This document shows positions 4,198 through 32,000 of a DNA stretch of 32,000 nt, in pieces. The stretch is taken from contig NZ_WUUQ01000003.1 of NCBI RefSeq assembly GCF_009831105.1, positions 120,001 through 152,000 of the forward strand, read 5' to 3'. Source of the stretch: Copranaerobaculum intestinale. Lineage in GTDB: Bacteria; Bacillota_I; Bacilli_A; Erysipelotrichales; Erysipelotrichaceae. The notes under the pieces are model-generated. The model saw nothing but the letters and a program-made list of their open reading frames with translations, was not told the DNA's origin and did no database searches. Every line of letters begins with the position of its first letter. Within the stretch, counting starts at the first letter, position 1. The position numbers and the translations under genes were made by a program.

Positions 4198-4440
4198 ATG
4201 GGATGGATGAAAATGACGCTGGATCAAATAAAAATCGGAGAATCCGCAAAAATCACTGCTGTTTTTGGCGAAGAAGAGCTTCGCTGTCGGCTGCTGGATA
4301 TGGGACTGACCCCACGAACCGAAGTAATGGTGAGAAAAGCGGCACCGATGGGCGATCCCATTGAACTGCGGCTGCGCGGCTATGAGCTGACGCTGCGGCT
4401 GGAGGATGCACGCAATATCGAAGTGGAGGAACACGCATGA
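4198..4440 (+). CDS. feoA: Ferrous iron transport protein A (FeoA)
   Basis: Small SH3-like FeoA signature (LRCRLLDMGLTPRTEVMVRKAAPMGDPIEL). In-frame ATGs at 4207 and 4213 are alternative, possibly better, starts. The stop overlaps the feoB start (ATGA). Confidence 0.85.
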   Translation: MGWMKMTLDQIKIGESAKITAVFGEEELRCRLLDMGLTPRTEVMVRKAAPMGDPIELRLRGYELTLRLEDARNIEVEEHA

Positions 4441-6440: not shown

Positions 6441-6628
6441 AATTCATAGATATCGTATTATTGTTATTAATTGTGCTGGCCGTTATCGGCGCTGTTAGAT
6501 ACCTGAGAAAACACAAGGGTACGTGCGGAGATTGTAAAGGCTGTACCTTGGATTGTCATCACCCGGATATATATGAAGCATATCGGCGTGATCATCCGGC
6601 TGATCCCAAAGCGGATCAAAAAGGATAG
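6437..6628 (+). CDS. FeoB-associated Cys-rich small membrane protein
   Basis: ATG 6437 overlaps the feoB stop (ATGA). MKFIDIVLLLLIVLAVIGAVRYLRKHKGTCGDCKGCTLDCHH has one TM helix followed by a Cys cluster. The track start at 6392 lies inside feoB and is unlikely. Confidence 0.7.
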   Translation: MKFIDIVLLLLIVLAVIGAVRYLRKHKGTCGDCKGCTLDCHHPDIYEAYRRDHPADPKADQKG

Positions 6629-12676: not shown

Positions 12677-13732
12677 TTAACGGGTAACCGTGTGCTTGCT
12701 TACGCCGACCGGATTATCCGGGTCATAATCGCGGGAGAGAGCGCATAGGCAGGCAAACATCTGCGCAAATACAGCGCACGCATAGACTGCTTCCAAACCG
12801 TCATACTGAGATGGAATCAAGACAGAGCTGTCACCCAGCTTCGCAATTTCCGGATCATTGGTAACAATTGTAGAATAAATATGCTTTTCTTCTTTTAAAC
12901 GCTCATGCAGGCCGATAATGCATTCGTTGGTCTGCTTATCAGCGATGAAGAAGATCGCCGGCACGAAGCGAAGCGACGTGGCAATCGGACCGTGACGATA
13001 ATCACTGGACGCATAGCTGCGGGCATCCAGATAGCTGGTTTCCTGAATTTTCAATTCTGCTTCCTGTGCCAAACCGTACAGTAAACCGCGTCCAAACAGC
13101 AGCATATGCTCAATGTTGCGGTAAACCGGAATGATCGCCCGTACCTGATCTTCCAGCTTCAAAGCTTCAGCCACAATATCGGGAAGCTTATCCAGCTGAC
13201 TGATCAATTCTGCCTTTCCGCTGATGTGGGCAGCTAACGCATTCAGGATCAACAGCTGTGTCATATAGGATTTAGCTGCGGTAATGCTGGTTTCTTTGCC
13301 GCATTCATTGTTGATGTAATATTTTCCGGCGGTGGTCATCAATGTATCACGTTCATTGGTTACACTGACACAAATTCCCCCCTGCTCATCGCAGCGCTTC
13401 ATTACTTCATAGACGTCCTGCGCTCCGCCTGACTGGGATACACCGATTACCAAAGCATTTGAGTAATCCACGTTTCCATTATAGCAGGTGATAACAGCAG
13501 GGGTAGCGATGCTGGCAATCATCCCGCAATGAGTCTCAAACAGATAGCGTGCCAACTGAGCTGCGTGATCACTGGAACCGCGAGCCGCAAAAACAACGGT
13601 CTTGATGCCTCGCGCTTTTACTTCAGCGGCGATTTCCTTGAAAATCGGGGTGTTGACCGATAAACAGCGGCGCATCATTTCCGGCTGTTCAAAAATCTCT
13701 TTCCAAAGCTTAGAATTGCTAGTTGAAATCAT
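12677..13732 (-). CDS. Double-SIS-domain sugar-phosphate isomerase/deaminase (GlmS isomerase-domain / AgaS-like)
   Basis: N-terminal WKEIFEQPE, then VVFAARGSSDHAA and IGVSQSGGAQDV SIS motifs. At 351 aa it has no glutaminase domain. Confidence 0.75.
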   Translation of the reverse strand: MISTSNSKLWKEIFEQPEMMRRCLSVNTPIFKEIAAEVKARGIKTVVFAARGSSDHAAQLARYLFETHCGMIASIATPAVITCYNGNVDYSNALVIGVSQSGGAQDVYEVMKRCDEQGGICVSVTNERDTLMTTAGKYYINNECGKETSITAAKSYMTQLLILNALAAHISGKAELISQLDKLPDIVAEALKLEDQVRAIIPVYRNIEHMLLFGRGLLYGLAQEAELKIQETSYLDARSYASSDYRHGPIATSLRFVPAIFFIADKQTNECIIGLHERLKEEKHIYSTIVTNDPEIAKLGDSSVLIPSQYDGLEAVYACAVFAQMFACLCALSRDYDPDNPVGVSKHTVTR

Positions 13733-13827
13733 AATTTCCCTCCTTGACTTTTACGAAATTATTTTATCACAGTTTGTGTTATAATGTTATTATATATTTA
13801 CAAATATTTTAAAAGGAGGTTTCATTT

Positions 13828-15045
13828 ATGCAGAAATTAGTAATTTCCCACCGTATCTATACTGAAAGGGGATGTTTGGACGGCGCTTTGCTCATTGAGG
13901 ATGACAAGATCAAGCAGATTTATACCCGAGAAAATATCCCGGCTGATTATTGCGGGACGATTGAGGATTACGGAAATGATCGGATCATTCCCGGCATCAT
14001 CGAGATGCATGTGCATGGTTTTAAAGGATGGAGCGCTTTTTCCTCCGATGTGGAAGAAATCAGAAAGCTTGGCAAAGCATTGACGGTCAGTGGAATCACG
14101 GGATTTACGCCGACCAATCATTACAAGCCGAATATTATGGAGAATGCCGCAGCCTTGGCAGATGCTTATGAAGGACCGCGTTACGGAGCCCGCAATCTTG
14201 GTATCCACATGGAAGGTCCCTTCATTTCCGCAAAAACTTTAGGGTCGGTCGAAGCTGATGATTTACATGAACCGGACTTGGATTTAATGAAAAAATTTTA
14301 TGAAGCATCCCGCGGTCATATCAATACGGTCACGATGGCACCAGAAGTGCCGGGCAATATGGAAATCTTAGATTGGCTTGTTGCCCATGGAGTGAATCCG
14401 TGCATCGGGCATTCCTACGCTACGTATGCAGAATGCAAAAAAGCAGTTGATCACGGTGCGGTTATCACCCAGAAAACCGGAAACTGTATGCGCCAGATTC
14501 ATCAGCGTGAGGTTGGCGTAGTTGGTGCCGCGATGCTGGATCGCCGCTTATATAATGAAATCAATTCCGATTTAGCACATTGCAGTAAGGAATTTCTGGA
14601 AATCCTATACCGCATGAAGGGCTATGAAAAACTATGCTTGGTAGCAGATAACGGCCGCATGAGCGGATTGGCATTTGGCCGCTATGATCTGAAGGAACGC
14701 GGCGGCAAGTATGAAGTGGGTAAGGATGGATTGCTGCACATTGCGGACGGTACGATCGACGGCAGTGCTTTAACGATCATGCACGGGATCCGCAACTGGG
14801 TGGAAGTAATCGGTATTCCCATGGAAGAAGCGGTTGTTATGGCTTCACTGAATCCGGCCAAGGTATGCCATGTTGATCATCAAAAAGGATCGATCAAAGA
14901 AGGCAAGGATGCGGATTATGTCGTTATTGACGATGCGTATCAGGTACTGCATACGGTAGTTGAGGGCACGATCGAATATGATTGTCAAAATGGTTTCAAC
15001 TATGATAATAAAGAATATGCCGACTGTTTGATGGAAGCATATTAA
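13828..15045 (+). CDS. N-acetylglucosamine-6-phosphate deacetylase-like amidohydrolase (NagA family)
   Basis: PGIIEMHVHGFKGW (HxH), GIHMEGPFIS and TGNCMRQIHQREVG resemble NagA signature segments. AAAGGAGG RBS. Confidence 0.75.
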   Translation: MQKLVISHRIYTERGCLDGALLIEDDKIKQIYTRENIPADYCGTIEDYGNDRIIPGIIEMHVHGFKGWSAFSSDVEEIRKLGKALTVSGITGFTPTNHYKPNIMENAAALADAYEGPRYGARNLGIHMEGPFISAKTLGSVEADDLHEPDLDLMKKFYEASRGHINTVTMAPEVPGNMEILDWLVAHGVNPCIGHSYATYAECKKAVDHGAVITQKTGNCMRQIHQREVGVVGAAMLDRRLYNEINSDLAHCSKEFLEILYRMKGYEKLCLVADNGRMSGLAFGRYDLKERGGKYEVGKDGLLHIADGTIDGSALTIMHGIRNWVEVIGIPMEEAVVMASLNPAKVCHVDHQKGSIKEGKDADYVVIDDAYQVLHTVVEGTIEYDCQNGFNYDNKEYADCLMEAY

Positions 15046-15164
15046 AAATTAAGAAAGAACCCAACCCAGATATTGTTAAAAAATGCACAATTATGATAGA
15101 ATCGTGTTATAATATCATAAAGTAAAGACAATGATACAAAGATACAAGGTTGGGAGGTATCGAC

Positions 15165-15923
15165 TTGACTACCGATTACATCAAATTAAATAAAATGACG
15201 GCAACCCCGCTTTATTATCAACTGAAAGAAAGCATCAAAGCCGCAGTCAGTGAAGGCATTTTAAAACCCAATGATAAATTGCCTACGGAAGAAGAGCTGT
15301 GTCTGGCCTTTAATATATCCCGTCCGGTCATCCGTCAGGCGTATTCGGAATTAATCAATGAAGGAATCATCACAAGATTTAAAGGCAAAGGCACATTTGT
15401 CCGCGAACAGGAAGTGAAGGGAAGATTCTTCCGAGAACTCAGCAATTTTCAGCATGAAATGCACCGCCTTGGACTTACGCCAAGCACCAAGGTTCTGTCT
15501 TTAGAAACCATTTCGTATAATCGCAGGGTGTACGATGAAGTATTCCATTTAGAAAAAGGCGAGCCGGTTCTGCATATTCGCAGACTGCGTTATGGAAATG
15601 ACATACCAATCGTTTTGGTTGAAACCTTTGTCCCGCTGAAATATTTTCCGGGATTAGAAAAAGCGGATTTCACCAGTACCTCACTGTATGATCTGTTTGA
15701 GAAAAATTACAGTACCTATGTTGCCAAAGCAGAACGTACGATCGAAGCTCGCATCATTGAAAATAAGGATGCCGATCTGTTGGAAGTCAAACGTCACAGT
15801 GCCATGCATTTTGTAAAGACCTATGCATATGATCTCAGTGAGCGTATGGTTGAGTATTCAATAGCAGTTTACCCGGGCGAACGCAATAAGTTTGATGTCG
15901 TCATCAACCGCAGCAGCAACTGA
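15165..15923 (+). CDS. GntR-family (HutC/UTRA-type) transcriptional regulator
   Basis: PLYYQLKESIKAAV...LPTEEELCLAFNISRPVIRQAYSELINEGII is a winged-HTH followed by a UTRA-sized C-domain. The TTG at 15165 follows GGGAGG by 7 nt; the track start at 15150 is also a TTG. Confidence 0.8.
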   Translation: MTTDYIKLNKMTATPLYYQLKESIKAAVSEGILKPNDKLPTEEELCLAFNISRPVIRQAYSELINEGIITRFKGKGTFVREQEVKGRFFRELSNFQHEMHRLGLTPSTKVLSLETISYNRRVYDEVFHLEKGEPVLHIRRLRYGNDIPIVLVETFVPLKYFPGLEKADFTSTSLYDLFEKNYSTYVAKAERTIEARIIENKDADLLEVKRHSAMHFVKTYAYDLSERMVEYSIAVYPGERNKFDVVINRSSN

Positions 15924-21674: not shown

Positions 21675-22868
21675 ATGCAGGAATATTTGATCATATCCAA
21701 GCGAATACTTACGCCTAATGGCTTTCTGGCAGGAGCCCTGCACATTCAAAATGGAATTATCGTCAATATATATCAGGAGGAGGATGAGCTGCCTGATCTG
21801 CCGATGTATGGCTATCGCACCCAGATGGTATTGCCCGGTATTATCGATCTGCACACGCATGGCCTGCTGGGCTGGGCGGCAGCTTCCTTTGATGCGGAAA
21901 AAATTGAAAAGCTCGCTCAGGCAGAATGCTGCGTCGGTGTGACGGCCTTTCAGCCATCCATTGCAGATTTGGAAACAATGGAGGATTATGATCGGTGCCT
22001 GCATGCCATTGGTAAAGCAAATCCGATTAGCGGGGCGAGGATTCTAGGAGCGCATATGGAAGGCCCGTATTTTCATCCCGATCATAAGGGCTGTGACCTG
22101 GCGCGTAATATCACGCCGTCATTAGATGCGATGAAAGCGGCCATAGAAGCATCTGATCATCATCTGACGTATGTTGCGCTGGCTCCGGAATTACAAAATA
22201 TGGATACGATTATACCATATTTATTAAAAGCGCAGATACGAGTGGGAATCGGCCACAGCGATGCGACTTTTGCTCAAGCCTGGCAGGCCATTGAGATGGG
22301 CGCGAACATCGGTATCCATACCGGTAATGCGATGCGGGCAATTCATCAGCGGGAAATCGGTATCAGCGGAGCCCTTCTGCTGCATCCAGACGCTTATTGT
22401 GAGTTGATTTGTGATTTTCACCATCTGGCCCCTGAATACATTCAGCTGGTTTTGAAAATGAAGGGAAAAGAGCGGGTTTTGATGATGAGTGACGCGACGG
22501 AAATGTCCGGCTTAAACGAGGGTATTTACCGTATCCGCGGCCGTAAGATGATCGTGAAAGAGGGAAAGGTGCAGCTGGAAGACGGTACGATTGCCGGCAG
22601 CAGCAGTTATGTGCTTGCGGGAATGAAAAACCTGGTGCAGAAATTGAATCTGCCGATTGAGGATGTATCATATATGGCATCTATGAGCCCTGCGAACGTA
22701 ATGGGGATCCAGGCGCATAAAGGGTCGTTGGAAGTCGGCAAGGATGCAGATATCATGGTTCTGGATGATGACTTTAACTGTATGGTGACCTATGTGGAGG
22801 GAACCTGTCGCTATCAGGGAGAACCGTTGTCGGATTATACGAATCATACCTTTTTTAACCAAGCATAA
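21675..22868 (+). CDS. NagA-family deacetylase-like amidohydrolase (paralog of 13828-15045)
   Basis: PGIIDLHTHGLLGW, GAHMEGPYF and TGNAMRAIHQREIG parallel the motifs of the first copy. Confidence 0.75.
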   Translation: MQEYLIISKRILTPNGFLAGALHIQNGIIVNIYQEEDELPDLPMYGYRTQMVLPGIIDLHTHGLLGWAAASFDAEKIEKLAQAECCVGVTAFQPSIADLETMEDYDRCLHAIGKANPISGARILGAHMEGPYFHPDHKGCDLARNITPSLDAMKAAIEASDHHLTYVALAPELQNMDTIIPYLLKAQIRVGIGHSDATFAQAWQAIEMGANIGIHTGNAMRAIHQREIGISGALLLHPDAYCELICDFHHLAPEYIQLVLKMKGKERVLMMSDATEMSGLNEGIYRIRGRKMIVKEGKVQLEDGTIAGSSSYVLAGMKNLVQKLNLPIEDVSYMASMSPANVMGIQAHKGSLEVGKDADIMVLDDDFNCMVTYVEGTCRYQGEPLSDYTNHTFFNQA

Positions 22869-22892
22869 AAAATCACGTAATAAAAAATATAT

Positions 22893-22927
22893 AAAAAAAG
22901 CATTCGATGTGGGATCGGATGCTTTTT
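22893..22927. terminator. Bidirectional terminator between convergent genes
   Basis: AAAGCATTCGAT / ATCGGATGCTTT form a 12-bp stem (one G-U pair) with a 5-nt loop, flanked by an A-run and a T-run. Confidence 0.7.
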
Positions 22928-22941
22928 CATGTAATCAAAGA

Positions 22942-24045
22942 TTAGCATTCTGTATCTACATAGTTTTCTGTTTTGCAGGCAACTTTTTCTTTGAAGATAT
23001 TGTACAGCGGATGCTTTTCCCATTTATGTGTATCTTCCGTAACTTTATAAGAAATGATCTGGAAGAACGGCAGTGAGTATAATGGTGCGATCAATGGATT
23101 GGTGTCGAATGGCAGCCGGATCGCATGATCATCGTCAACCGTTGGATCATTGGTGATGATGTAAGCTTCATCGGTAATTGTACGTACAGCGTGATAAATT
23201 TCACTGACGCGTTTACTGCAGTGATCCATACCATCCACGAAGAACAGTGTGTAGTTTGGAGTAAGCTGCAGGTTTGGACCATGCAGGAATTCTTCCATTT
23301 CATAAGCGACAGATGGAATCTGAACCGTCTCACCGATTTTCAGGGCACCTTCCAGTGCGGTACCATAGCTGGCACCGAATCCGCATACATAAGCGCTGGT
23401 CATGGAAGTCATCGCCTTGTAATTTGTTTCGTAAAATTTCAAGGTTTCCTCGGTAACGATCTTATGTGCATCAGCAGTCTTTTTGATTTCTGCTTTTAAG
23501 GAATCTGCCTGTTCTGCATCCATGATGCCTTTCACTAATGCGGCTTCAATCGAGAACAGCATTAAGAATTCCGCTAACGTAGTAACACCCTTTGTCACAT
23601 AGCCAACGGTTTCAATGCCAACCCCATATTCAACCAATTCATCCGCATGATCTTTGAAATCACTGTCCAGATTTCCGGTCAGGCCGATTGCTTTTTTACC
23701 CATTGCCTTCAGCTTTTCAAGCGCTTCAATTGAATTCGTAGAATATCCGCTCTGTGAGATAACAAAACCGAAGTCATCATCACCCATATTGTTTTCATAG
23801 TTTGTGAAGGTATATGGGGTAACGATTTTCACTTCACAGTTCAGATACTCACGCATAAATGCACGGGCACAATTAGAACCGTTGAAGGAAGATCCGGATG
23901 CGATAATCCAGATTGTTTTATAATCCTTTTCCGTGAAGTCTTTCACCAGGGCTGCGGTCAGTTCCTTAGAACGATCTACGTTGTGGGCGATAGCCGGTGC
24001 AGACTCTAATACGTAATCCATCATGGTCATTTTCTTTTCTGTCAT
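22942..24045 (-). CDS. Double-SIS-domain sugar-phosphate isomerase/deglycase (AgaS/GfrF-like)
   Basis: IWIIASGSSFNGS and FVISQSGYSTNS SIS motifs. AAGGAGG lies 5 nt upstream of ATG 24045. Confidence 0.75.
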   Translation of the reverse strand: MTEKKMTMMDYVLESAPAIAHNVDRSKELTAALVKDFTEKDYKTIWIIASGSSFNGSNCARAFMREYLNCEVKIVTPYTFTNYENNMGDDDFGFVISQSGYSTNSIEALEKLKAMGKKAIGLTGNLDSDFKDHADELVEYGVGIETVGYVTKGVTTLAEFLMLFSIEAALVKGIMDAEQADSLKAEIKKTADAHKIVTEETLKFYETNYKAMTSMTSAYVCGFGASYGTALEGALKIGETVQIPSVAYEMEEFLHGPNLQLTPNYTLFFVDGMDHCSKRVSEIYHAVRTITDEAYIITNDPTVDDDHAIRLPFDTNPLIAPLYSLPFFQIISYKVTEDTHKWEKHPLYNIFKEKVACKTENYVDTEC

Positions 24046-24227
24046 AATTTCCTCCTTGTCATATTGTCATGATATATTTATTATAGCATATGATTTGTTG
24101 AATGCAATTTCTGTTCTAGGTAAATTTGTAGAAAAAGATTCTTATTTATAAGGAAAGAGCATAAAGAAAGGAATGTAATTTCATAATCGGGGAATATGTG
24201 AAAATGCAATCATTATGTAACTACATA

Positions 24228-24256
24228 TTGACAATCAGGAAGCTTTTTACTAAAAT
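24228..24256 (+). promoter_or_regulatory. Sigma-A promoter of the PTS operon
   Basis: TTGACA (24228-24233), 17-nt spacer, TAAAAT (24251-24256). The palindrome ATGTA-ac-TACAT (24213-24224) lies just upstream. Confidence 0.6.
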
Positions 24257-24303
24257 ATAGTCAGGCAATAAAACGCTTACAAAATAGATAGGGATGATTA
24301 ATA

Positions 24304-24777
24304 ATGGCAGAGCCTAACATTTTATTGACAAGAATTGACAACCGTCTGGTACACGGACAGGTTGGTAACGCATGGGTTGGAGCAGTTGGACCGAACTTGA
24401 TTATCGTAGCAGATGATGAAGCGGCAAACGATCCGATTCAGCAGTCCTTGATGAAGATGACTGCTTCATCAGTAGGCTGCGGTATCCGTTTCTTCTCTTT
24501 GCAGAAGACGATTGATACGATTTTTAAAGCAAGTCCTAGTCAGAAGATTTTCCTGGTTGTGAAAACTCCGGCCAGCGCAAGAAAACTGATTGAAGGCGGT
24601 GTTCCAATTAAGCAGTTGAATGTTGGTAATATGCATTTCTCAGACGGTAAAAAAGTTTTGCATGAGTCACATGTTTATGTCGATGACAAAGACGTTGCTG
24701 ACTTTGATGCAATTAAGGCTGCCGGAACGGAAATTTATATTCAGATCGCTCCAGGCGATAAAAAATATACCGTTTAA
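24304..24777 (+). CDS. PTS mannose/fructose/sorbose-family EIIB component
   Basis: The N-terminal LTRIDNRLVHGQV contains the phospho-His motif of Man-family IIB. Confidence 0.9.
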   Translation: MAEPNILLTRIDNRLVHGQVGNAWVGAVGPNLIIVADDEAANDPIQQSLMKMTASSVGCGIRFFSLQKTIDTIFKASPSQKIFLVVKTPASARKLIEGGVPIKQLNVGNMHFSDGKKVLHESHVYVDDKDVADFDAIKAAGTEIYIQIAPGDKKYTV

Positions 24778-24797
24778 ATTTGTACAATGCATGAAGG

Positions 24798-24825
24798 AAA
24801 ATGCATGCGGAATACATGCATTTTT
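24798..24825 (+). terminator. Terminator-like hairpin inside the PTS operon (IIB-IIC spacer)
   Basis: AAATGCATG / CATGCATTT form a 9-bp stem with a 7-nt loop, running into a T-run. Confidence 0.4.
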
Positions 24826-24918
24826 AAATTCGGGTTTTAAGCTCGTTTGTAAGAAAGGGATACAGACAGCTTTTAACATATTGATCGTTTAATACGATCA
24901 GAAAAGGAGGATTTTTAG

Positions 24919-25719
24919 ATGGAGATTACGATGGAGATTACATTGATTCAAGGTATTCTGCTTGCGATCGTTGCATTCATCTGTGGAATCGACCAGTGCT
25001 GGGAAGCATTCTACTGGTTCCGTCCGATGGTTGTTGCGTTCTTTGCAGGTATCGCACTCGGCGACATGAAGCTTGGTATCCAGGCTGGTGCCATTGCCGA
25101 ACTGTCTTATCTGGGTCTGCTGACTGTTGGTGGTACCGTTCCACCTGATCCACTGATGGCTGGTATGATGACAGTTGTTATCGCATACACAACTGGCAAA
25201 GGTGTGGAGACTGCATTAGGTCTTTCCCTGCCATTCGCACTGTTAGCTCAGTGGTTAGGTATTTTCTTCAATACCGTATACGCTGGTTTCATGCGTCCGT
25301 TGGAAGCTGCTGCAAAAGCTGCTGACACAAAGAAATTCAGAAACATCGTTTATCTGTCAGTTGCTATTAAAGCAGGTGCAGTTGCACTGCTGACTTTCTT
25401 AGCAGCTTATGGTTTACAGAAACCAATTCAGGAATTCGTAAATGCATTCCCGAAAGAATTAATTCACGGCTTTGAAATTGCCGGTAACCTGTTACCTGCA
25501 GTTGGTTTAGGCCTGTTATTGATGATCATGCTGAAAAAGGAGAATGCTCCTTACCTGTTCATCGGTTTCTTAATTGCTACATTTACTTCTGTTGGCAACG
25601 TTCTGCCAATCGCTATTGCGGCAATCGCTATTGCATACATCGATTATATGTATGATCAGAAAATGGCAAAAGCGGCTAGCGTAAGTATGGAAGGAGGAGC
25701 TGACGATGACGGTATCTAG
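24919..25719 (+). CDS. PTS mannose-family EIIC component
   Basis: 266-aa polytopic protein with a typical Man-IIC N-terminus (IQGILLAIVAFICGID). GGAGG lies 8 nt upstream. Confidence 0.85.
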   Translation: MEITMEITLIQGILLAIVAFICGIDQCWEAFYWFRPMVVAFFAGIALGDMKLGIQAGAIAELSYLGLLTVGGTVPPDPLMAGMMTVVIAYTTGKGVETALGLSLPFALLAQWLGIFFNTVYAGFMRPLEAAAKAADTKKFRNIVYLSVAIKAGAVALLTFLAAYGLQKPIQEFVNAFPKELIHGFEIAGNLLPAVGLGLLLMIMLKKENAPYLFIGFLIATFTSVGNVLPIAIAAIAIAYIDYMYDQKMAKAASVSMEGGADDDGI

Positions 25720-26497
25720 AAATAAACTGACAAAACAAGATATTAACAAGATGAGTTTATACTCTGTTATTGAACAGTCATGCTTTAGTTTTGAACGTAT
25801 GCAGGCTGCAGGTTTCACACTTTCTATGGTTCCTACATTCAAAAAAATCTACGGTGATCAGAAAGAAGAAATCGCTGCTGCTATGATGAATAACATGGAC
25901 TTCATCAACACTGAACCGCATATGGCTACTTTCTTGATGGGATTGATCGTATCTCTGGAAGAAGCTGGTGAAGACCGCGAAATGATCAAGGGTATTAAAA
26001 CTGGTCTGTTCGGACCTTTAGCTGGACTTGGAGATGCAATCTTCTGGTTCACACTGCTGCCGATTTCTGCAGCGATCTGCTGTTCCATTGCCAAAGATGG
26101 TTCCGTTCTTGGACCTCTGCTTTATATTGGCATTTGGTTTGTTGCGGCAATTTCTCGTATCTGGTTTGGACGTCTGGGCTACACATTAGGTGTTAACGCA
26201 GTATCTACTATTTCTGAGAATGCGAACGCTATCACCAAAGCAGCTGGTATTCTGGGTGTAATGGTTGTAGGTGGATTGATTCCTTCTTACGTATCACTTG
26301 AATTTGCCAAAAAGCTGACAGTTGCCGGCGGAGTTAACGTTCAGGGAGTATTTGATGGAATTCTGCCTAACGTTCTGCCTTTAGGATTTGTGTTCCTGCT
26401 GTATTGGCTGTTCAAGAAAAAGAACGCTAACGTTATCGTTATCATTCTGGGAATTATTGTATTCTCAATCGGTATGTCCTACCTCGGCTGGATGTAA
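25706..26497 (+). CDS. PTS mannose-family EIID component
   Basis: FERMQAAGF, NTEPHMATF and GPLAGLGDAIFW are typical of Man-family IID. It overlaps IIC by 14 nt. Confidence 0.9.
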   Translation: MTVSRNKLTKQDINKMSLYSVIEQSCFSFERMQAAGFTLSMVPTFKKIYGDQKEEIAAAMMNNMDFINTEPHMATFLMGLIVSLEEAGEDREMIKGIKTGLFGPLAGLGDAIFWFTLLPISAAICCSIAKDGSVLGPLLYIGIWFVAAISRIWFGRLGYTLGVNAVSTISENANAITKAAGILGVMVVGGLIPSYVSLEFAKKLTVAGGVNVQGVFDGILPNVLPLGFVFLLYWLFKKKNANVIVIILGIIVFSIGMSYLGWM

Positions 26498-26516
26498 GAT
26501 AAGAGTGATGTATATG

Positions 26517-26553
26517 AGCTCTTCATTGGTAAGCCAATGAAGAGCTTTCTTTT
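26517..26553 (+). terminator. Strong intrinsic terminator between PTS IID and the frlB-like gene
   Basis: AGCTCTTCATTGG / CCAATGAAGAGCT form a perfect 13-bp stem with a 4-nt loop, followed by TTTCTTTT. Confidence 0.7.
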
Positions 26554-26575
26554 ATGAAAGGGAAAGGGTGACAAG

Positions 26576-27574
26576 ATGATTAATTTTGATGAAAAAAGCA
26601 TGTTAGCGAATGGGGCATATATTTATGATCAAAGAGGTCATATGGAAGCGATTGCAGATCAGATCTGTAAAGAGGGCTTTGATAATATTTTCTTTACATC
26701 AAGCGGAGGATCTATCGCTATGATGAATCCTTTTGTGGATATCATCAATGAGATGAGTGATATTCCTGTATATTCCATTATTTCCGCTGATTTACTATTG
26801 ACCGGCCACAATCAGCTGCGTAAGAATTCGGTTGCATTTCTGGCATCCAAATCCGGTGATACAAAAGAAACTATGGAAGCTGCCCGGTATCTGAAAGAGC
26901 GTGGGGTACGCATGATTTCAGTAATCGGAAAAGAGCATTCACCGCTGGAAGAAATATCTGATCATAGTGTTATATATAAGGACGGTCGTCCTCAAGAGCT
27001 GATTATGTATCTCTTAATTGGAAGAATTTTATATAATAAGGGATTCTTTCCGGATTATCCGAAATTTGCGGATGAATTAAAAGAACTGCCGGCAGTCCTT
27101 GTTTCAGTACGCAAAGCGGCAGATGAGAAAGCGAAGAAATATGCGGAAACATACTATAAGGAACCATATAATATCTGGGTAGCATCGGGTAATTTATGGC
27201 CGGTCTGCTATGCTTATGCGATGTGTGTATTAGAAGAGAGTCAATGGATCCGCACAAAATCGGTCAGCTCACCAGAGTTCTTCCACGGAACACTGGAGTT
27301 GGTTGAAAAGGATGTTTGTGCTACCTTATTGATCACCGAAGGTAAAACCAGACCATTGGATCTTCGGGTGAAGGGCTTTTTGGAACAGTATACAGATAAA
27401 TTCACTTATTTTGACTGTGCTGAATATGCGTATCCGGGAATCAGTGATGAATTTCGCTGGATGCTTTCACCAGTGGTTATGAATGCAGTTTTGCAGCGCA
27501 TCAGTAAGAATATTGAAGTTGTAACCAATCATTCTCTGGATATTCGGCGTTATTATCGTACGGTTAACTACTAG
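26576..27574 (+). CDS. frlB: Fructosamine (fructoselysine-6-phosphate) deglycase-like SIS protein
   Basis: SIS motifs (FFTSSGGSIA, FLASKSGDTKET). The C-terminal ...HSLDIRRYYRTVNY resembles the tail of E. coli FrlB as I recall it (...HNPDERRYYGGLVEY). Confidence 0.6.
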   Translation: MINFDEKSMLANGAYIYDQRGHMEAIADQICKEGFDNIFFTSSGGSIAMMNPFVDIINEMSDIPVYSIISADLLLTGHNQLRKNSVAFLASKSGDTKETMEAARYLKERGVRMISVIGKEHSPLEEISDHSVIYKDGRPQELIMYLLIGRILYNKGFFPDYPKFADELKELPAVLVSVRKAADEKAKKYAETYYKEPYNIWVASGNLWPVCYAYAMCVLEESQWIRTKSVSSPEFFHGTLELVEKDVCATLLITEGKTRPLDLRVKGFLEQYTDKFTYFDCAEYAYPGISDEFRWMLSPVVMNAVLQRISKNIEVVTNHSLDIRRYYRTVNY

Positions 27575-27585
27575 GCGGAGACTCT

Positions 27586-28440
27586 ATGAAAATTCTTGGA
27601 TTAGGTGATAATGTAGTTGATCGCTATCTGAATCTCAAGGTGATGTTTCCGGGCGGCAATGCAGTCAATGTAGCTGCGCACAGTGCCAAATTGGGAGCTG
27701 AAGCTGGTTATCTGGGACGTATCGGTAATGATCAGGAGGGCCGAATGTTATTGAATGCTCTTCAAGATCTGCATATCGACCTTTCCCATTGTGAGCTTGT
27801 AGACGGCGGTACTACCAAGCGTTGTGATGTGAATGTATATGAGGGTGAACGATCTTTTGTCGGGGTTGATCTAGGAACCGCCTGGCCGGGAGCGCCGACT
27901 TTAAAGGATGATGATATCGCTTATATAAATTCTTTTGATCTTATTCACAGCAGCTGTAACGCGAAAATGCCGGAGCAAATGATGAAATTGAAAGACTGTC
28001 CTGGTCTTGTTTCGTTTGATTTCGGAGAAAAGGAAAAATACCGTACGGATGAATATATGGATATGGTCTGCCCATATACGAATCTGGCGCTGTGCTCCTG
28101 TGACGGCATGTCTTTGGAAGCGCGCAAAGCGCTGGCAAAAAGAATGCTTGAAAAAGGAATTGATGTTGTGCTGCTTACCAGCGGCAATGTCGGACCGCTT
28201 GCATATAATGGCACGGTCTATGTTGAAGGCAAGGTTGAATATGTAAAGCCAATTGATACAATGGGTGCAGGTGATTCTTTTCTAGCAGCCTTCATCGTAT
28301 CGCTGCTGAAACAGGGTTGGAAGAAATCTCATATACCAAGCGAGTCAATGCTTCAGAAAGCCTTGCATCAAGGCGCACACTACGCCGCACAGAACTGTCT
28401 GATTGAAGGCGGCTTTGGATATAAGAAATTATATATTTAG
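27586..28440 (+). CDS. frlD: PfkB-family kinase, fructoselysine 6-kinase-like
   Basis: LGDNVVDRY...FPGGNAVNVA and IDTMGAGDSFLAAF closely parallel E. coli FrlD segments as I recall them. The last ~40 codons lie in repeat copy A, and the final three codons plus the stop (LYI*) are AT-rich insert-derived sequence. Confidence 0.7.
   Translation: MKILGLGDNVVDRYLNLKVMFPGGNAVNVAAHSAKLGAEAGYLGRIGNDQEGRMLLNALQDLHIDLSHCELVDGGTTKRCDVNVYEGERSFVGVDLGTAWPGAPTLKDDDIAYINSFDLIHSSCNAKMPEQMMKLKDCPGLVSFDFGEKEKYRTDEYMDMVCPYTNLALCSCDGMSLEARKALAKRMLEKGIDVVLLTSGNVGPLAYNGTVYVEGKVEYVKPIDTMGAGDSFLAAFIVSLLKQGWKKSHIPSESMLQKALHQGAHYAAQNCLIEGGFGYKKLYI
28309..28429 (+). repeat. Direct repeat copy A (3' end of the intact frlD-like gene)
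   Basis: Aligns without gaps to 31226-31346 at a constant offset of 2917 nt, with 7 mismatches by hand count. Confidence 0.9.
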
Positions 28441-28456
28441 CAAAGGAATCCCCTTC

Positions 28457-28485
28457 TTGACAATATTTTCCAATTTAACTATAAT
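28457..28485 (+). promoter_or_regulatory. Consensus sigma-A promoter at the left end of the islet
   Basis: TTGACA (28457-28462), exactly 17 nt, TATAAT (28480-28485). Confidence 0.75.
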
Positions 28486-28531
28486 GAAGTTATAAGGGAA
28501 TAACGGAATTATTACTAGGGGGGTGATTCCA

Positions 28532-28561
28532 ATGGTTACATTTATTTTCAATAGAACATAA
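28532..28561 (+). CDS. Candidate 9-codon leader peptide (MVTFIFNRT)
   Basis: AGGGGGGTGA ends 5 nt upstream of the ATG. The TAA stop (28559-28561) lies inside the 5' arm of the following terminator. Confidence 0.35.
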   Translation: MVTFIFNRT

Positions 28562-28596
28562 AAGAATAGTTATCTATCTTTATGTTCTATTTTTTT
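28551..28596 (+). terminator. Intrinsic terminator / attenuator in the islet leader
   Basis: ATAGAACATAAA (28551-28562) pairs perfectly with TTTATGTTCTAT (28579-28590), followed by T6. Confidence 0.7.
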
Positions 28597-28623
28597 ATTT
28601 ATTGACCATAAGGAGGATAAAAT

Positions 28624-29052
28624 ATGTTAATTAATAAATTGATATTGGCTACGTCAGTTTTATTTCTTTCATCTTCACCTGTAAGCTTATATACTAGTGA
28701 TGAGTGGGAAATTATGCCACGAGCAGCTGTTGGAAGTCAAAAGGCATATAGTGGAACTGCTAAAATGAAAACAATAGGTAATACTTTGCAAACAGTTAAC
28801 TATAATGTAACCGTATATATGTCGTGGGATGATTCAACAGGTCGTGTTTTAGGTGCTGATTTTGGAGGACATAAATGTACTGTACCTGCATCCGGGGTTA
28901 AATTTACATGTACACTAGAAACCGTTTCTATTACAAAAGCAACATATTATGCCAAATATACATATAAAGCTGTTTATACACTTAATGGGGTAAAAAGAGA
29001 TTATGGAAGTCCTAATTTCACTATCACAAGATACAGTCCAGGTCAAAGTTAA
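28624..29052 (+). CDS. Secreted hypothetical protein (142 aa, signal peptide, beta-rich, two Cys)
   Basis: AAGGAGG RBS. The N-terminal MLINKLILATSVLFLSSSPVSL is signal-peptide-like. I recognise no family. Confidence 0.7.
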   Translation: MLINKLILATSVLFLSSSPVSLYTSDEWEIMPRAAVGSQKAYSGTAKMKTIGNTLQTVNYNVTVYMSWDDSTGRVLGADFGGHKCTVPASGVKFTCTLETVSITKATYYAKYTYKAVYTLNGVKRDYGSPNFTITRYSPGQS

Positions 29053-29058
29053 TCTAGA

Positions 29059-30831
29059 ATGAAAAAAAAGTACCTAGTTATTCCTTTATTTTCATTCATA
29101 TTAATGATTTTAATATATAATCTTACTTCATTCATGAATTTTAATTTTTATTATACATTTTCTGATGTATTGCATATTGAAACATATCAATCAATGAACA
29201 CAATTGATGTTATTAATAGTAATGAAATGGAATTCGATAAATTCATTGTATCTTTGATTGAGTATGCAAACAAAAATAATATAACTTATGTTCATGATAA
29301 TAATAGTAGTAAAAATGGAACAGAAATTATTAATCATTATATTTATTCAAATAATCAAAAAGTACAAAAATTATTGGATATCAAATCAAAAGATTTCAAA
29401 TATAATTTCAGCTTTAGTACAAAACCAAGTAAAGTTACAGATCGTTTATTAGAATTTGGAAAGCCCTATATTGATGGAAACATTAATTTAATTATTGGCA
29501 TTAAAAATTTTGCTTATTTAAAAAACTCTAATTTTTCAAACTTCCGTTTGACAGTTCTTTGTGCAACGCAGAAAAAATTTAATAGTTTCTCAAAATGGCT
29601 TGAAAATAGTAAAGGTTTAGAAACTAGAAAAGTCGAAGTTCATTCTGAATGGCTTCAGGAGTTAAAAAGTAAGAAAAATTTAATGATTAATCTAATTTTA
29701 CTTTTAATAATTTTATTGTTTGTTTTTGATATTAAATTAATATTAAAGGAGGTAGATAAAAAGAATATTTTAAAAGAAAATATTATAATACTTTCTTTAT
29801 CGTTTAGTATCTTTGTATTTTTATTCATAGGATTATCAAGTATACATAATAATATCTTTTTAAAACAATACATGTATTATATATTACCCAGAGTATTTAT
29901 GATTTATTTTACTTATTTGATAGTATCCTTCATAATATTTAGTTTTTTTGAAAAAAACACATCTAATAAGCTTAATTTGTATATTTACACAAAGCTTATT
30001 TATTCTATTATTTTAATGGTTTCTTTGAATAAAGTATATTATCTAACTGAATACTATTTGAAACAAGGTTATAATATCTATGTTAATCAAGAAGAAATAA
30101 ATTCTAAATATTTGATTAAAAATCTTGATCAGATAAACAAAGAATTATTTGAGGATTTTTTACCAGAAATAATATATTATGATTTTCTAAAATTAAATCT
30201 AAATGGAGTTGAGTATTCTTTTATAATAGTGAATAATGAATATATAAGTAAACACTTAAATTTTACACTCAATTTAACTGATTATGATTATATTATACCA
30301 AAAATCTTCAAATCAAGTTTAAAAAAAGAATTTTCCAATTACAAAGTTTTGTGGACAAAACAAGATTATAAATTTTTGAATTATAATATATATGATGTTA
30401 ATCAAGGCTTTGACAATGTAATAATTAGCAATATTGAACATAATAAGCAATTTGATTATGTTGATAGTGGGTGTATATTTATTCCTGAGCATAAAATACA
30501 AAGAATTAAAAATGTGTTACATGATCATAATATAGAGACTTATAATCTTATTAAGTATAAAGGAAAATCAAATTATGAATTAAGTATAGGAAAAGTGAAT
30601 ATTTTAATTAGTATTTATCTATTTGGCATGTTATTTTTGATCACGAATTCGTTGTGTCGAAATTTTATAGTTGAAATTAAAAGAAGCTATTTTTCCTATA
30701 TAGGTATGGAAATAATGTTTTTTGGATTTTTTTCATATATACTTAATATTCATTTGATACTATCATCAGCGTATTTTTTGGTTAATTGTACGTTCTTAAC
30801 CGTTGAGAAAATAAGAAAGAAGGATCTTTAA
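29059..30831 (+). CDS. Polytopic membrane protein, likely of the bacteriocin-associated integral membrane (DUF1430 / FtsX-like) family
   Basis: 590 aa with extremely AT-rich codons. Hydrophobic spans are arranged 1 + 4 + 2-3, separated by two Asn/Lys/Tyr-rich hydrophilic domains of about 180 aa. This architecture is typical of the membrane protein in lactococcin-972-type loci. There is no clear SD; the gene starts 6 nt after the upstream stop. Confidence 0.55.
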   Translation: MKKKYLVIPLFSFILMILIYNLTSFMNFNFYYTFSDVLHIETYQSMNTIDVINSNEMEFDKFIVSLIEYANKNNITYVHDNNSSKNGTEIINHYIYSNNQKVQKLLDIKSKDFKYNFSFSTKPSKVTDRLLEFGKPYIDGNINLIIGIKNFAYLKNSNFSNFRLTVLCATQKKFNSFSKWLENSKGLETRKVEVHSEWLQELKSKKNLMINLILLLIILLFVFDIKLILKEVDKKNILKENIIILSLSFSIFVFLFIGLSSIHNNIFLKQYMYYILPRVFMIYFTYLIVSFIIFSFFEKNTSNKLNLYIYTKLIYSIILMVSLNKVYYLTEYYLKQGYNIYVNQEEINSKYLIKNLDQINKELFEDFLPEIIYYDFLKLNLNGVEYSFIIVNNEYISKHLNFTLNLTDYDYIIPKIFKSSLKKEFSNYKVLWTKQDYKFLNYNIYDVNQGFDNVIISNIEHNKQFDYVDSGCIFIPEHKIQRIKNVLHDHNIETYNLIKYKGKSNYELSIGKVNILISIYLFGMLFLITNSLCRNFIVEIKRSYFSYIGMEIMFFGFFSYILNIHLILSSAYFLVNCTFLTVEKIRKKDL

Positions 30832-31160
30832 TGTTAAAAAAAAGTTTAAGTATTTTTACTATAATGTTAGTAGCTACTATAACGACTTGTTTTGCGTATC
30901 AACAATCAGCTGATGTGAAATGTGGAAATACAATGCCTAATAATTATGGTGTTGCATCAGCATATCATCCTGTTAGAACAACAGCAGCCACGCGAGTTAC
31001 ATCTGGAAATTTAGCTAAAGAAGGTCATAAATATTGTGCGAGAGTAGAAGATGCAAACTCTGCTGCTGTGCAGTGTACAACTAGAAGAAATACCTCTGCT
31101 GTTGCACAAAAGCCTTTAAGCCTCACAATCCCACATACGCATTCTTGGACATATGAGTAG
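30831..31160 (+). CDS. Secreted small protein, possible lactococcin-972-family bacteriocin precursor
   Basis: Signal peptide MLKKSLSIFTIMLVATITTCFA. NNYGVASAYHPVRTTAATRV resembles the HGYGVSSAYSNYHHGSKTHSATVV core of lactococcin 972 as I recall it. The start overlaps the upstream stop (TAATG), and AAGAAGGA lies upstream. Confidence 0.45.
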   Translation: MLKKSLSIFTIMLVATITTCFAYQQSADVKCGNTMPNNYGVASAYHPVRTTAATRVTSGNLAKEGHKYCARVEDANSAAVQCTTRRNTSAVAQKPLSLTIPHTHSWTYE

Positions 31161-31225
31161 ATTATAAATTAATAGCAATGTCGCAAAATATATCAATTAT
31201 GATGTATATAAATTTTGTTTTATTA

Positions 31226-31354
31226 AAACAGAGTTGGAGGAAATCTCATATACCAAGCGAGTCAATGCTTCGGGAAGCCTTGCGTCAAGGCGCACACTAC
31301 GCAGCACAGAACTGTCTGATTGAAGGCGGCTTTGGATACAAGAAATCGTTTTAA
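31226..31354 (+). pseudogene. Orphan 3' fragment of the frlD-like kinase gene (direct repeat copy B, original gene tail)
   Basis: In-frame translation ...WRKSHIPSESMLREALRQGAHYAAQNCLIEGGFGYKKSF* parallels the C-terminus of the intact gene. It has no start codon or N-terminal part. Confidence 0.85.
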
Positions 31355-31356
31355 AA

Positions 31357-31379
31357 TCGGCTTCTAAAGCCGATTTTTT
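31357..31379 (+). terminator. Rho-independent terminator (native frlD terminator)
   Basis: TCGGCTT / AAGCCGA stem with a short loop, followed by T6. Confidence 0.75.
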
Positions 31380-31435
31380 ATCTTTCATGACGTATATGGA
31401 AATGATATAATACATTATAAAGGAGTCGATCTTAC

Positions 31436-32000
31436 ATGGAAGCTGTCTATCAGGAACTCACGATCAATCGTAATTCTGCAATTCCGCTCTATTTTCAATT
31501 TAAACAATTTATGATTGATAAAATTGAAAAGGGCGAGCTGAAAGCCGGAGATTTAGTACCAACCGAAGAAGAACTTTGTAAACTGTACCACATCAGTCGG
31601 CCAACCATCCGACAGGCCTTTGGTGAACTGGTGAATGAGGGGTACATGACGCGAAAACGGGCGTTGGGAACTTTTATATCTCATCCTAAGCTCAGTTCAA
31701 AATTTTTGAATCGCATCGCTCGTTTTGATGAAGAAATGGAAACCATAGGCGTTCAGCCCATTACTTTGGTGAAGAAGCTGGAAGTATGTGATGCACCGGA
31801 TGAGGTGGATATCAAATTGCATTTGCACGGTGATCAAGCGATCAATCTGAATCGTCTGCGGCTTACGGAAAAGGGAGTGCCGTTTGTCTACGAGGAAACG
31901 TATATGCCATATCATCTGTTTCGCGGTATGGAGCATCTTGATTATACTGAGGATTCCATGTATCTGAATATGGAAGCACACGGGCATAAGATAGGAAGGA
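31436..32000 (+). CDS. GntR-family (HutC/UTRA) regulator, FrlR-like, 3' end beyond the window
   Basis: Hand translation MEAVYQELTINRNSAIPLYFQLKQFMIDKIEKGELKAGDLVPTEEELCKLYHISRPTIRQAFGELVNEGYM... The frame is open to the window end, so it is not in the ORF track. AAAGGAG and TGATATAAT lie upstream. Confidence 0.8.
   Translation, partial: MEAVYQELTINRNSAIPLYFQFKQFMIDKIEKGELKAGDLVPTEEELCKLYHISRPTIRQAFGELVNEGYMTRKRALGTFISHPKLSSKFLNRIARFDEEMETIGVQPITLVKKLEVCDAPDEVDIKLHLHGDQAINLNRLRLTEKGVPFVYEETYMPYHLFRGMEHLDYTEDSMYLNMEAHGHKIGR

Follow-up and report, generated by a model that had tools for sequence, protein, structure and literature searches.

The systems closest to the locus presented here are the lactococcin 972 (Lcn972) cluster lcn972-orf2-orf3 of the Lactococcus lactis plasmid pBL1 and the loci of its family, in which a basic, unmodified, Sec-exported small protein is encoded beside a membrane protein of ~600-700 amino acids (aa) with 1+4+3 spans and two large outside domains, in a compact operon on accessory DNA. 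The pBL1 pair orf2-orf3 is regarded as an ATP-binding cassette (ABC) transporter with a part in immunity (PMC4055356). Mediterrocin (Mediterraneibacter gnavus, mdcE-I), a gut clostridial member of this family that has been validated as a bacteriocin, consists of an 89-aa core preceded by a Sec signal of 25 aa, and its identity to Lcn972 is 18%; its cluster encodes an extra signal-peptide protein (mdcG) beside the DUF1430 gene mdcH, and an ABC protein (mdcI) is present (PMC12345188). We analyzed a 32,000-nt stretch of the genome of Copranaerobaculum intestinale, a gut bacterium of the family Erysipelotrichaceae (contig NZ_WUUQ01000003.1, positions 120,001-152,000; hereafter the window, with coordinates counted from its first nucleotide), in which an islet of ~2.8 kb (28441-31225, 25% guanine-cytosine (GC) content) contains three open reading frames on the + strand, ORF1, ORF2 and ORF3. 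An earlier note, made from the sequence alone, had interpreted them as a non-canonical Lcn972-like bacteriocin-immunity module. The islet resembles the Lcn972 loci in layout; judged by sequence, it is not a member of the Lcn972/DUF1430 family, because the defining sequence features of that family were tested for and not found.

The basic small protein, the membrane protein layout and the compact operon given above for the family loci recur in the islet, and a 36-residue stretch of ORF3 is similar to Lcn972. Unlike in those loci, the small gene (ORF3) lies downstream of the membrane protein gene, a second, unrelated exported protein leads the operon, neither ORF3 nor ORF2 matches the family hidden Markov models (HMMs), the family signature is represented in ORF3 by 3 of 10 columns, and there is no ABC ATPase. 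The mediterrocin cluster, by its published description, is similar to the islet in its gut Bacillota host, in the size of the mature protein (89 aa, compared with 87 aa for ORF3) and in having an extra secreted protein. It differs in that mediterrocin and mdcH are still recognized as members of the Lcn972 family and DUF1430, respectively, and in the presence of the ABC protein mdcI.

The three genes of the islet and their products

28624-29052, + strand: ORF1, a protein of 142 aa with a signal-peptide-like N-terminus and a mature part of ~119 aa; orphan
29059-30831, + strand: ORF2, a polytopic membrane protein of 590 aa, 21% GC; orphan
30831-31160, + strand: ORF3, a protein of 109 aa with a Sec-type signal and a mature part of 87 aa; orphan

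The coordinates, strand and lengths of the three ORFs reported previously were confirmed, as was their tight coupling: ORF1 and ORF2 are separated by 6 nt (TCTAGA), and ORF2 and ORF3 share 1 base in the sequence TAATG. With the base composition of the islet, the stop probability per codon is 0.092, i.e. one stop is expected per ~11 codons, and the probability that a frame stays free of stops by chance is 1e-6 for ORF1, 1.5e-25 for ORF2 and 2.6e-5 for ORF3. The longest stop-free stretch comprises 592 codons; in 300 shuffles, its length was 74 codons on average and at most 130. Since the ORF lengths are far above those expected by chance in DNA of this composition, ORF1, ORF2 and ORF3 are real genes. 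Strong Shine-Dalgarno sites precede ORF1 (AAGGAGGA) and ORF3 (AGAAGGA).

The Kyte-Doolittle profile of ORF2 has peaks at residues 6-24, 210-228, 242-260, 279-297, 305-323, 515-533 and 550-568 and a shoulder at 564-582, the last two spans being merged in one 37-residue hydrophobic stretch. This profile bears out the 1+4+2-3 span layout with two large outside domains described before, the corresponding loops being of ~185 and ~190 aa. On direct reading, basic residues are found in the predicted cytoplasmic parts of the protein (the N-terminal MKKK, the inter-span loops and the C-terminal EKIRKKDL), and their placement favors a predicted topology of eight spans with both termini in the cytoplasm and ~375 residues outside the cell. 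The start of ORF2 is disputed (29059-29196): the Prokaryotic Genome Annotation Pipeline (PGAP) gives a protein of 545 aa beginning at M46, the Logan gene caller one of 565 aa beginning at M26, and the longest ORF is of 590 aa, beginning at M1. The 545- and 565-aa forms drop the first span, which would flip the predicted topology of the first large domain. Because no stop interrupts the 45 codons ahead of M46 (p = 0.013), and because the extension encodes MKKK followed by a transmembrane (TM) helix and starts 6 nt past the ORF1 stop codon, the 590-aa form seems more likely than the one in the public annotation. No internal duplication was detectable in ORF2, and its single-sequence AlphaFold2 model, for which there were no homologues to align, had a predicted local distance difference test (pLDDT) score of 41 and was unusable.

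Signal peptides had also been assigned to ORF1 and ORF3, and direct reading of both N-termini agrees with this, each having a basic n-region and a hydrophobic h-region. In ORF3, the n-region is MLKK, the hydrophobic core extends over residues 4-24 and the sequence CFA-Y occupies residues 20-23, so that cleavage is likely after CFA22. Mature ORF1 (~119 aa, isoelectric point (pI) 9.2) is beta-rich by composition, and the two Cys residues reported for ORF1 are present; mature ORF3 (87 aa, pI 9.19) has three Cys. The charge is about +4 for both mature proteins, the corresponding values for Lcn972 being pI 9.7 and charge +4.2, and the predicted mature masses are ~13 kDa and ~9.5 kDa. The Lcn972 family is characterized by a Sec signal, a small basic mature protein of 65-90 aa and a lack of modification genes, and ORF3, with its predicted Sec signal, conforms to this.

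The earlier note could name no family for the two secreted proteins, and neither has a match above cutoff in Pfam, NCBIfam, PHROG or PADLOC. The same scans of ORF2, and Pfam and NCBIfam scans of the mature parts of ORF1 and ORF3, returned nothing above cutoff either, and no hydrolase, YxeA/DUF1093 or other domain was found in ORF1 or ORF3 with Pfam and NCBIfam. The Smith-Waterman similarity of these two proteins to YxeA was not significant. Among ~15 billion proteins, ORF1, ORF2 and ORF3 had self-matches only: in a word-indexed search of 5.8 billion clusters each matched only itself, and so did ORF2 in an exhaustive phmmer search of 1.84 billion representative proteins. As homologues of ORF1 and ORF3 were sought by the word-indexed search alone, very distant relatives of these two proteins may be missed. 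In tblastn searches of plasmids, ORF2 gave only compositional matches to Borrelia, ORF1 gave none, and ORF3 gave chance matches at E about 1-8; tblastn of ORF2 against 50,697 phage genomes and IMG/VR scans with all three proteins returned nothing. A sequence search of the PDB found nothing for ORF3 and ORF2, and for ORF1 a match to actinohivin alone.

Actinohivin is a ricin-B/CBM13-like lectin. The matching segment, STGRVLGADFGGHKCTVPASGVKF (ORF1 residues 71-94, window 28834-28905), aligns with all three tandem repeats of actinohivin (PDB 4DEN, 3A07). We considered a lectin fold for ORF1 on the basis of this 24-residue match (E 6.6e-4) and rejected it, each repeat match being insignificant singly; the apparent E value is inflated because one ORF1 segment matches three repeats. 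Mature ORF1 is about the size of one beta-trefoil, and neither a threefold repeat nor a QxW motif is visible in it.

Comparison with the lactococcin 972 and DUF1430 families

As controls, we used six plasmid-borne loci with an Lcn972 annotation (Lactococcus, Streptococcus, Staphylococcus, Enterococcus, Macrococcus and Bacillus), and verified the Lcn972 sequence against PDB 2LGN. The gene order in all six is bacteriocin, DUF1430-type membrane protein, sometimes a YxeA gene, and ABC ATPase. The order in the islet (secreted, membrane, secreted) is unlike this canonical one, as had been pointed out, and the ATPase reported missing is indeed found neither in the islet nor beside it, whereas each of the control loci has one immediately downstream.

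The proposed membership of ORF3 in the Lcn972 family was not upheld by HMM searches. PF09683 matched neither the precursor (E≤1) nor the mature protein (E≤10), whereas Lcn972 itself, used as the positive control, matches it at 3.4e-15. TIGR01653 scored the ORF3 precursor below its cutoff (16.7 versus 32.1 bits, E 0.0067) over residues 1-67, which include the signal peptide, and returned nothing for mature ORF3 (no match at E≤10) or for the signal peptide alone. A profile made from six mature Lcn972 domains gave ORF3 2.4 bits, a score that 1012 of 5000 shuffles equaled or exceeded. The motif NNYGVASAYH...AATRV, described before as reminiscent of the Lcn972 core, is present and has a real local similarity to Lcn972: BLASTP aligned ORF3 with the Lcn972 precursor at 14/36 identities (pairwise E 7e-4) in the region YGV-SAY...H..[KR]T.AT.V, and the Smith-Waterman score of 52 was exceeded by 3 of 2000 shuffles. 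The core residues of the family, however, are mostly absent. When the Lcn972 signature (GG-x-W-x-[YH]-G, S-x-Y-x-H, K-x-H-x-[AS]-T and a C-terminal Y) was tested, the W, S-x-Y, the second His and the C-terminal Tyr had no counterpart in ORF3, which retains 3 of the 10 columns invariant in the six verified members; true members, in a leave-one-out analysis, have 10 of 10-12. The similarity to the other five members was not significant (p 0.07-0.75). Since ORF3 matches only Lcn972 itself and retains so few of the invariant columns, the similarity lies mostly on residues peculiar to one member, and looks like a chance resemblance. The single-sequence AlphaFold2 model of mature ORF3 was unusable (pLDDT 45.3), and when this low-confidence model was compared with the PDB by Foldseek, no structure matched at E≤0.001 and 2LGN was not among the results.

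The assignment of ORF2 to the DUF1430 family fared no better. No match to DUF1430 (PF07242), TIGR01654 or bact_immun_7tm was found at E≤1 with Pfam and NCBIfam, whereas five control membrane proteins all match PF07242 (E 1.4e-5 to 5.9e-22), and two of them also match FtsX weakly. FtsX (PF02687) and MacB_PCD (PF12704) of Pfam had no match in ORF2. An hmmsearch with a profile of the controls gave ORF2 -54.2 bits, and 484 of 1000 block shuffles were as good; hhalign of ORF2 with the DUF1430 proteins gave a probability of 0.2%; and the pairwise Smith-Waterman scores of ORF2 were at the block-shuffle level, compared with 207-1159 for the control members among themselves. The topological likeness to the DUF1430 proteins, on the other hand, is confirmed: ORF2 and each of the five controls have the same 1+4+3 pattern and a pair of large outside domains. 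In one Enterococcus casseliflavus locus (plasmid NZ_CP068133.1; locus coordinates 4287-6416), the membrane protein is annotated as 'hypothetical protein' and scores 25.7 bits on DUF1430, versus a cutoff of 28.2; the position of this canonical member below the cutoff indicates that the family is divergent enough for true members to slip under the threshold.

Thus, the anatomy of the proposed Lcn972-like module (two exported proteins, a membrane protein, coupling and no ATPase) stands and its family assignment does not. The outcome that the earlier note had named as a refutation is the one observed, ORF3 having no significant match to the Lcn972 family and ORF2 no DUF1430 or FtsX match, which leaves the common topology and the 36-residue local similarity to Lcn972 itself. 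In the strongest version of that proposal, ORF3 would be an extremely divergent Lcn972 homologue, with a beta-sandwich that binds lipid II, and ORF2 a true DUF1430/bact_immun_7tm homologue, with the gene order rearranged and the ATPase lost. This version could draw on the sub-threshold TIGR01653 score, the 14/36 BLASTP identities, the low shuffle count (3/2000) and the identical topology, as well as on the great divergence of the family, to which mediterrocin (18% identical) and the one control membrane protein below the DUF1430 cutoff attest. However, the TIGR01653 match needs the signal peptide, PF09683 finds nothing, the profile score is at shuffle level, the other five members are not matched (p 0.07-0.75), 3 of 10 invariant columns are retained, ORF2 stays at 0.2% in hhalign and at shuffle level in Smith-Waterman comparisons, and the ATPase present in 6/6 controls is missing. 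We therefore consider such homology quite improbable.

A layout similar to that of ORF2 is also found in the tandem FtsX/MacB-type (type VII ABC) permeases, with their repeated unit of a TM helix, a ~190-aa outside domain and three TM helices. As weak FtsX matches occur in both halves of canonical DUF1430 proteins, FtsX/MacB is the parent architecture of the layout that these proteins have in common with ORF2. Unlike the permeases, ORF2 has no FtsX or MacB_PCD match, no detectable internal duplication and no partner ATPase. FtsEX serves as a scaffold or transducer for PcsB, CwlO and EnvC, and YxeA occurs in association with modules of the BceAB type. The Lcn972 loci of S. aureus and Macrococcus have a gene for a small exported protein of the YxeA family between their DUF1430 and ATPase genes (locus coordinates 6203-6523 and 2293-2607, respectively), so that extra secreted proteins are a recurrent feature of such loci.

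The islet might then encode a non-antagonistic envelope module, in which an FtsX-like ORF2, as a scaffold or transducer, would hold or control the exported proteins on the cell surface, or be a permease with an ATPase encoded elsewhere. The double TM/outside domain/3 TM layout is consistent with this explanation, as are the exported YxeA-family proteins of the two loci just mentioned, with their partners of the same layout, and the tight translational coupling, which suggests stoichiometric partners. We nevertheless regard it as rather unlikely, because ORF1 and ORF3 have neither a hydrolase nor a YxeA/DUF1093 domain and no significant Smith-Waterman similarity to YxeA, because no ATPase partner was identified in the window, and because the arrival of a housekeeping-type function on a species-restricted islet of 21-37% GC is hard to explain.

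Acquisition of the islet and its expression signals

The islet splits a host operon for fructoselysine-type utilization that comprises phosphotransferase system (PTS) IIB/IIC/IID genes, a SIS-domain protein, a pfkB kinase and a GntR/UTRA regulator. The features at its borders are as follows.

27586-28440, + strand: kinase gene, pfkB-type (fructoselysine-6-kinase-like; PF00294 3e-29, NF007321 2.6e-44)
28309-28429, + strand: left copy of a direct repeat, the last ~40 kinase codons, in frame; the kinase ends in KKLYI
31178-31354, + strand: spurious ORF of 58 aa, a chimera of an AT-rich islet-derived start and the displaced kinase 3' end
31226-31346, + strand: right repeat copy, a displaced kinase 3' end with the terminal residues KKSF, inside the spurious ORF
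31353-31377, + strand: intrinsic terminator with an 11-bp stem and a T-run, native to the kinase operon and the only terminator-like site found by a scan

The GC content drops from ~0.43 to 0.22 over 29-31 kb, and at third codon positions it is 0.17-0.19 in ORF1, ORF2 and ORF3 versus 0.42 in the adjacent kinase gene. A repeat search and alignment showed that the direct repeats (121 nt) are imperfect, with 94% identity and seven mismatches scattered along their length. The right copy retains the native terminator and the GntR gene, and the terminator is now downstream of the islet operon too. In Massilicoli timonensis, the closest genome retrieved (kinase 58% identical), the kinase gene is followed by GntR after 117 nt, with no insert. 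The islet thus has the properties expected of a mobile islet, namely deviant composition, flanking repeats of the target 3' end and absence from the orthologous locus, from which it follows that it was acquired horizontally at the 3' end of the kinase gene; as to the mechanism of insertion, site-specific and Campbell-type recombination are equally possible. We are almost certain that the 58-aa ORF is no gene. The left repeat agrees with the Massilicoli orthologue at three variable codons (G, Q and K) and the right one does not, which suggests that the right copy, despite its native terminator, is the decaying or foreign-derived one.

Recombinase-less islets with att-like repeats at gene 3' ends are known, the cis-mobilizable elements at fda in Streptococcus thermophilus being an example. 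The islet is like them in that the insert is of foreign composition, the repeats duplicate the target 3' end, the target is intact and no integrase is encoded inside; it is unlike them in that its repeats are long (121 nt) and 6% diverged over the whole length. No recombinase was found in the islet or in the 32-kb window, no phage genes were found anywhere in the window, and no related autonomous element was found.

The islet was detected in eight metagenome contigs from six samples, at 99.7-100% identity, and only in C. intestinale. Every metagenome contig of the species that reaches beyond the kinase 3' end contains it, and three others stop in the kinase gene or the 3' repeat. No empty site of the same species was found among the metagenome contigs, in two metagenome DNA scans, which gave no matches, or by a look-up of the neighboring SIS protein, which returned one contig with the islet and two ending before it. 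Three of the metagenome contigs share five single nucleotide polymorphisms (SNPs) relative to the window, at 29673, 29989, 30138, 30269 and 31190; the first four result in K205K, T311P (in a predicted membrane span), N360N and L404P in ORF2, and the fifth is intergenic.

The expression signals of the islet lie between its left end and ORF1.

28457-28485, + strand: sigma-70 promoter with perfect consensus (TTGACA, 17 nt, TATAAT), inside the islet and upstream of ORF1
28532-28561, + strand: upstream ORF (uORF) of nine codons, MVTFIFNRT, with a strong Shine-Dalgarno-like GGGGGGTGA 5 nt upstream (direct reading)
28550-28597, + strand: leader hairpin, AT-rich and 42 nt long (28550-28591), with a T-run behind it, ~25 nt upstream of the start of ORF1

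The promoter is the sole 12/12 match in a scan of 28200-31600. The leader is ~130 nt long, and the predicted RNA fold of 28490-28630 has a minimum free energy of -30.5 kcal/mol (z = -3.24), with 0 of 200 shuffles as good. The hairpin and its T-run resemble a terminator or attenuator placed between the promoter and the ORF1 ribosome-binding site; the terminator scan missed the hairpin because its stem has fewer than three G-C pairs. The last four uORF codons overlap the 5' arm of the hairpin, a geometry from which we infer that translation-controlled attenuation would fit. A translation-coupled attenuator and a small RNA are both conceivable roles for the structured leader, in which an Rfam scan detected no family above the threshold.

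The foreign character of the islet bears on two further explanations. First, it may be inert passenger DNA, recently acquired from an AT-rich donor, intact and without any contribution in the host. Complete orphan status and a composition mismatch without amelioration are what such DNA would show, and prolines introduced by two of the four ORF2 SNPs and a terminator-like hairpin between promoter and ORF1 are consistent with it. All three ORFs, however, are intact in every sample at 99.7-100% identity, the expression signals are of consensus type and the starts are coupled, and a frame of 590 codons in DNA of 21% GC decays quickly without selection (P 1.5e-25 by chance); we find this explanation distinctly unlikely. 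Second, the islet could be a phage-exclusion or surface-modification 'moron', i.e. mobile-element cargo that keeps phages from adsorbing or their DNA from entering. Superinfection-exclusion genes typically encode membrane and exported proteins, and the AT-rich foreign cargo with its strong promoter of its own, its terminator-flanked layout and its location at a gene 3' end would agree with such a role. Given that there is no PADLOC or PHROG match, that no relatives were found in the 50,697 phage genomes or in IMG/VR, and that the 32-kb window is free of phage genes, a role of this kind is very unlikely.

Elsewhere in the window, there are two paralogous sugar-amine utilization clusters (12677-15923 and 21675-28440), one with SIS, amidohydrolase and GntR/UTRA genes and the other with amidohydrolase, SIS, PTS IIB/IIC/IID, SIS and pfkB kinase genes, and two tandem feoB genes (4437-6440 and 7212-9371).

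Possible function of the islet proteins

The activity of all islet proteins we infer by analogy. We tentatively propose that the islet might be a bacteriocin-like antagonism and self-protection cassette, analogous and not homologous to the Lcn972 loci, and put the chance of this well short of even. The second option offered by the earlier note, a different secreted-effector/immunity system with a common membrane layout, is the best guess available. In the proposed cassette, ORF1 and/or ORF3, as Sec-exported cationic proteins expressed from the self-promoted three-gene operon acquired at the sugar-kinase 3' end, would act on the envelope of competitors. ORF2, encoded on one mRNA with them, would provide the self-protection: through its double FtsX-like layout, it would bind the exported proteins or drive them out on the outside of the membrane, with no ATPase at all or with one borrowed from elsewhere. 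The basic nature of the exported ORF1 and ORF3, the size of mature ORF3 (close to that of mediterrocin), its local similarity to Lcn972, the layout of ORF2 as in the Lcn972 loci, the consensus promoter, the coupling of the genes and the restriction of this accessory unit to one species are consistent with such a function.

Several observations weigh against this proposal. Its weakest point is the missing ATPase: the window has a single ABC ATPase, which lies at a distance of 11 kb and has an ABC-2 permease as its partner, and no FtsX-type permease is known to work without an ATPase. At the curated thresholds of Pfam, NCBIfam, PHROG and PADLOC, none of the three proteins could be related to a bacteriocin, immunity or transporter family, and our own Lcn972 and DUF1430 profiles scored ORF3 and ORF2 no better than shuffled sequences. 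The structure models were unusable (pLDDT 41-45), and without homologues there is no comparative sign of selection or of a conserved gene association. Small basic exported proteins are common and not specific to bacteriocins. The SNPs are too few for a test of selection, and the prolines that two of the four in ORF2 introduce (T311P and L404P) are a slight hint of relaxed constraint.

A more elaborate form of the proposal, in which the islet would be a recombinase-less insert that encodes a new family of Sec-dependent protein bacteriocin(s) and an ATPase-independent FtsX-like immunity protein under a leader-peptide attenuator switch, is unlikely to hold in full. The probability left over by the antagonism and self-protection cassette and the four other explanations discussed above belongs to functions outside these categories.

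Orphan islets are common, and the interest of the one described here is moderate to low unless an activity is shown. In kind, it combines exported proteins with a dedicated membrane protein on accessory DNA, and our confidence in any function assigned to it is low. Should its exported proteins have no antimicrobial activity, the islet would join the other orphan inserts restricted to one lineage, with the practical lesson that a remembered motif and a common topology are too little to place a protein in the Lcn972 family. If they are antimicrobial, they would constitute a new sequence family among the unmodified Sec-exported bacteriocins of gut anaerobes, and ORF2 would exemplify a double-FtsX-like immunity layout able to work without an ABC ATPase, which would bear on how DUF1430 proteins protect their producers.

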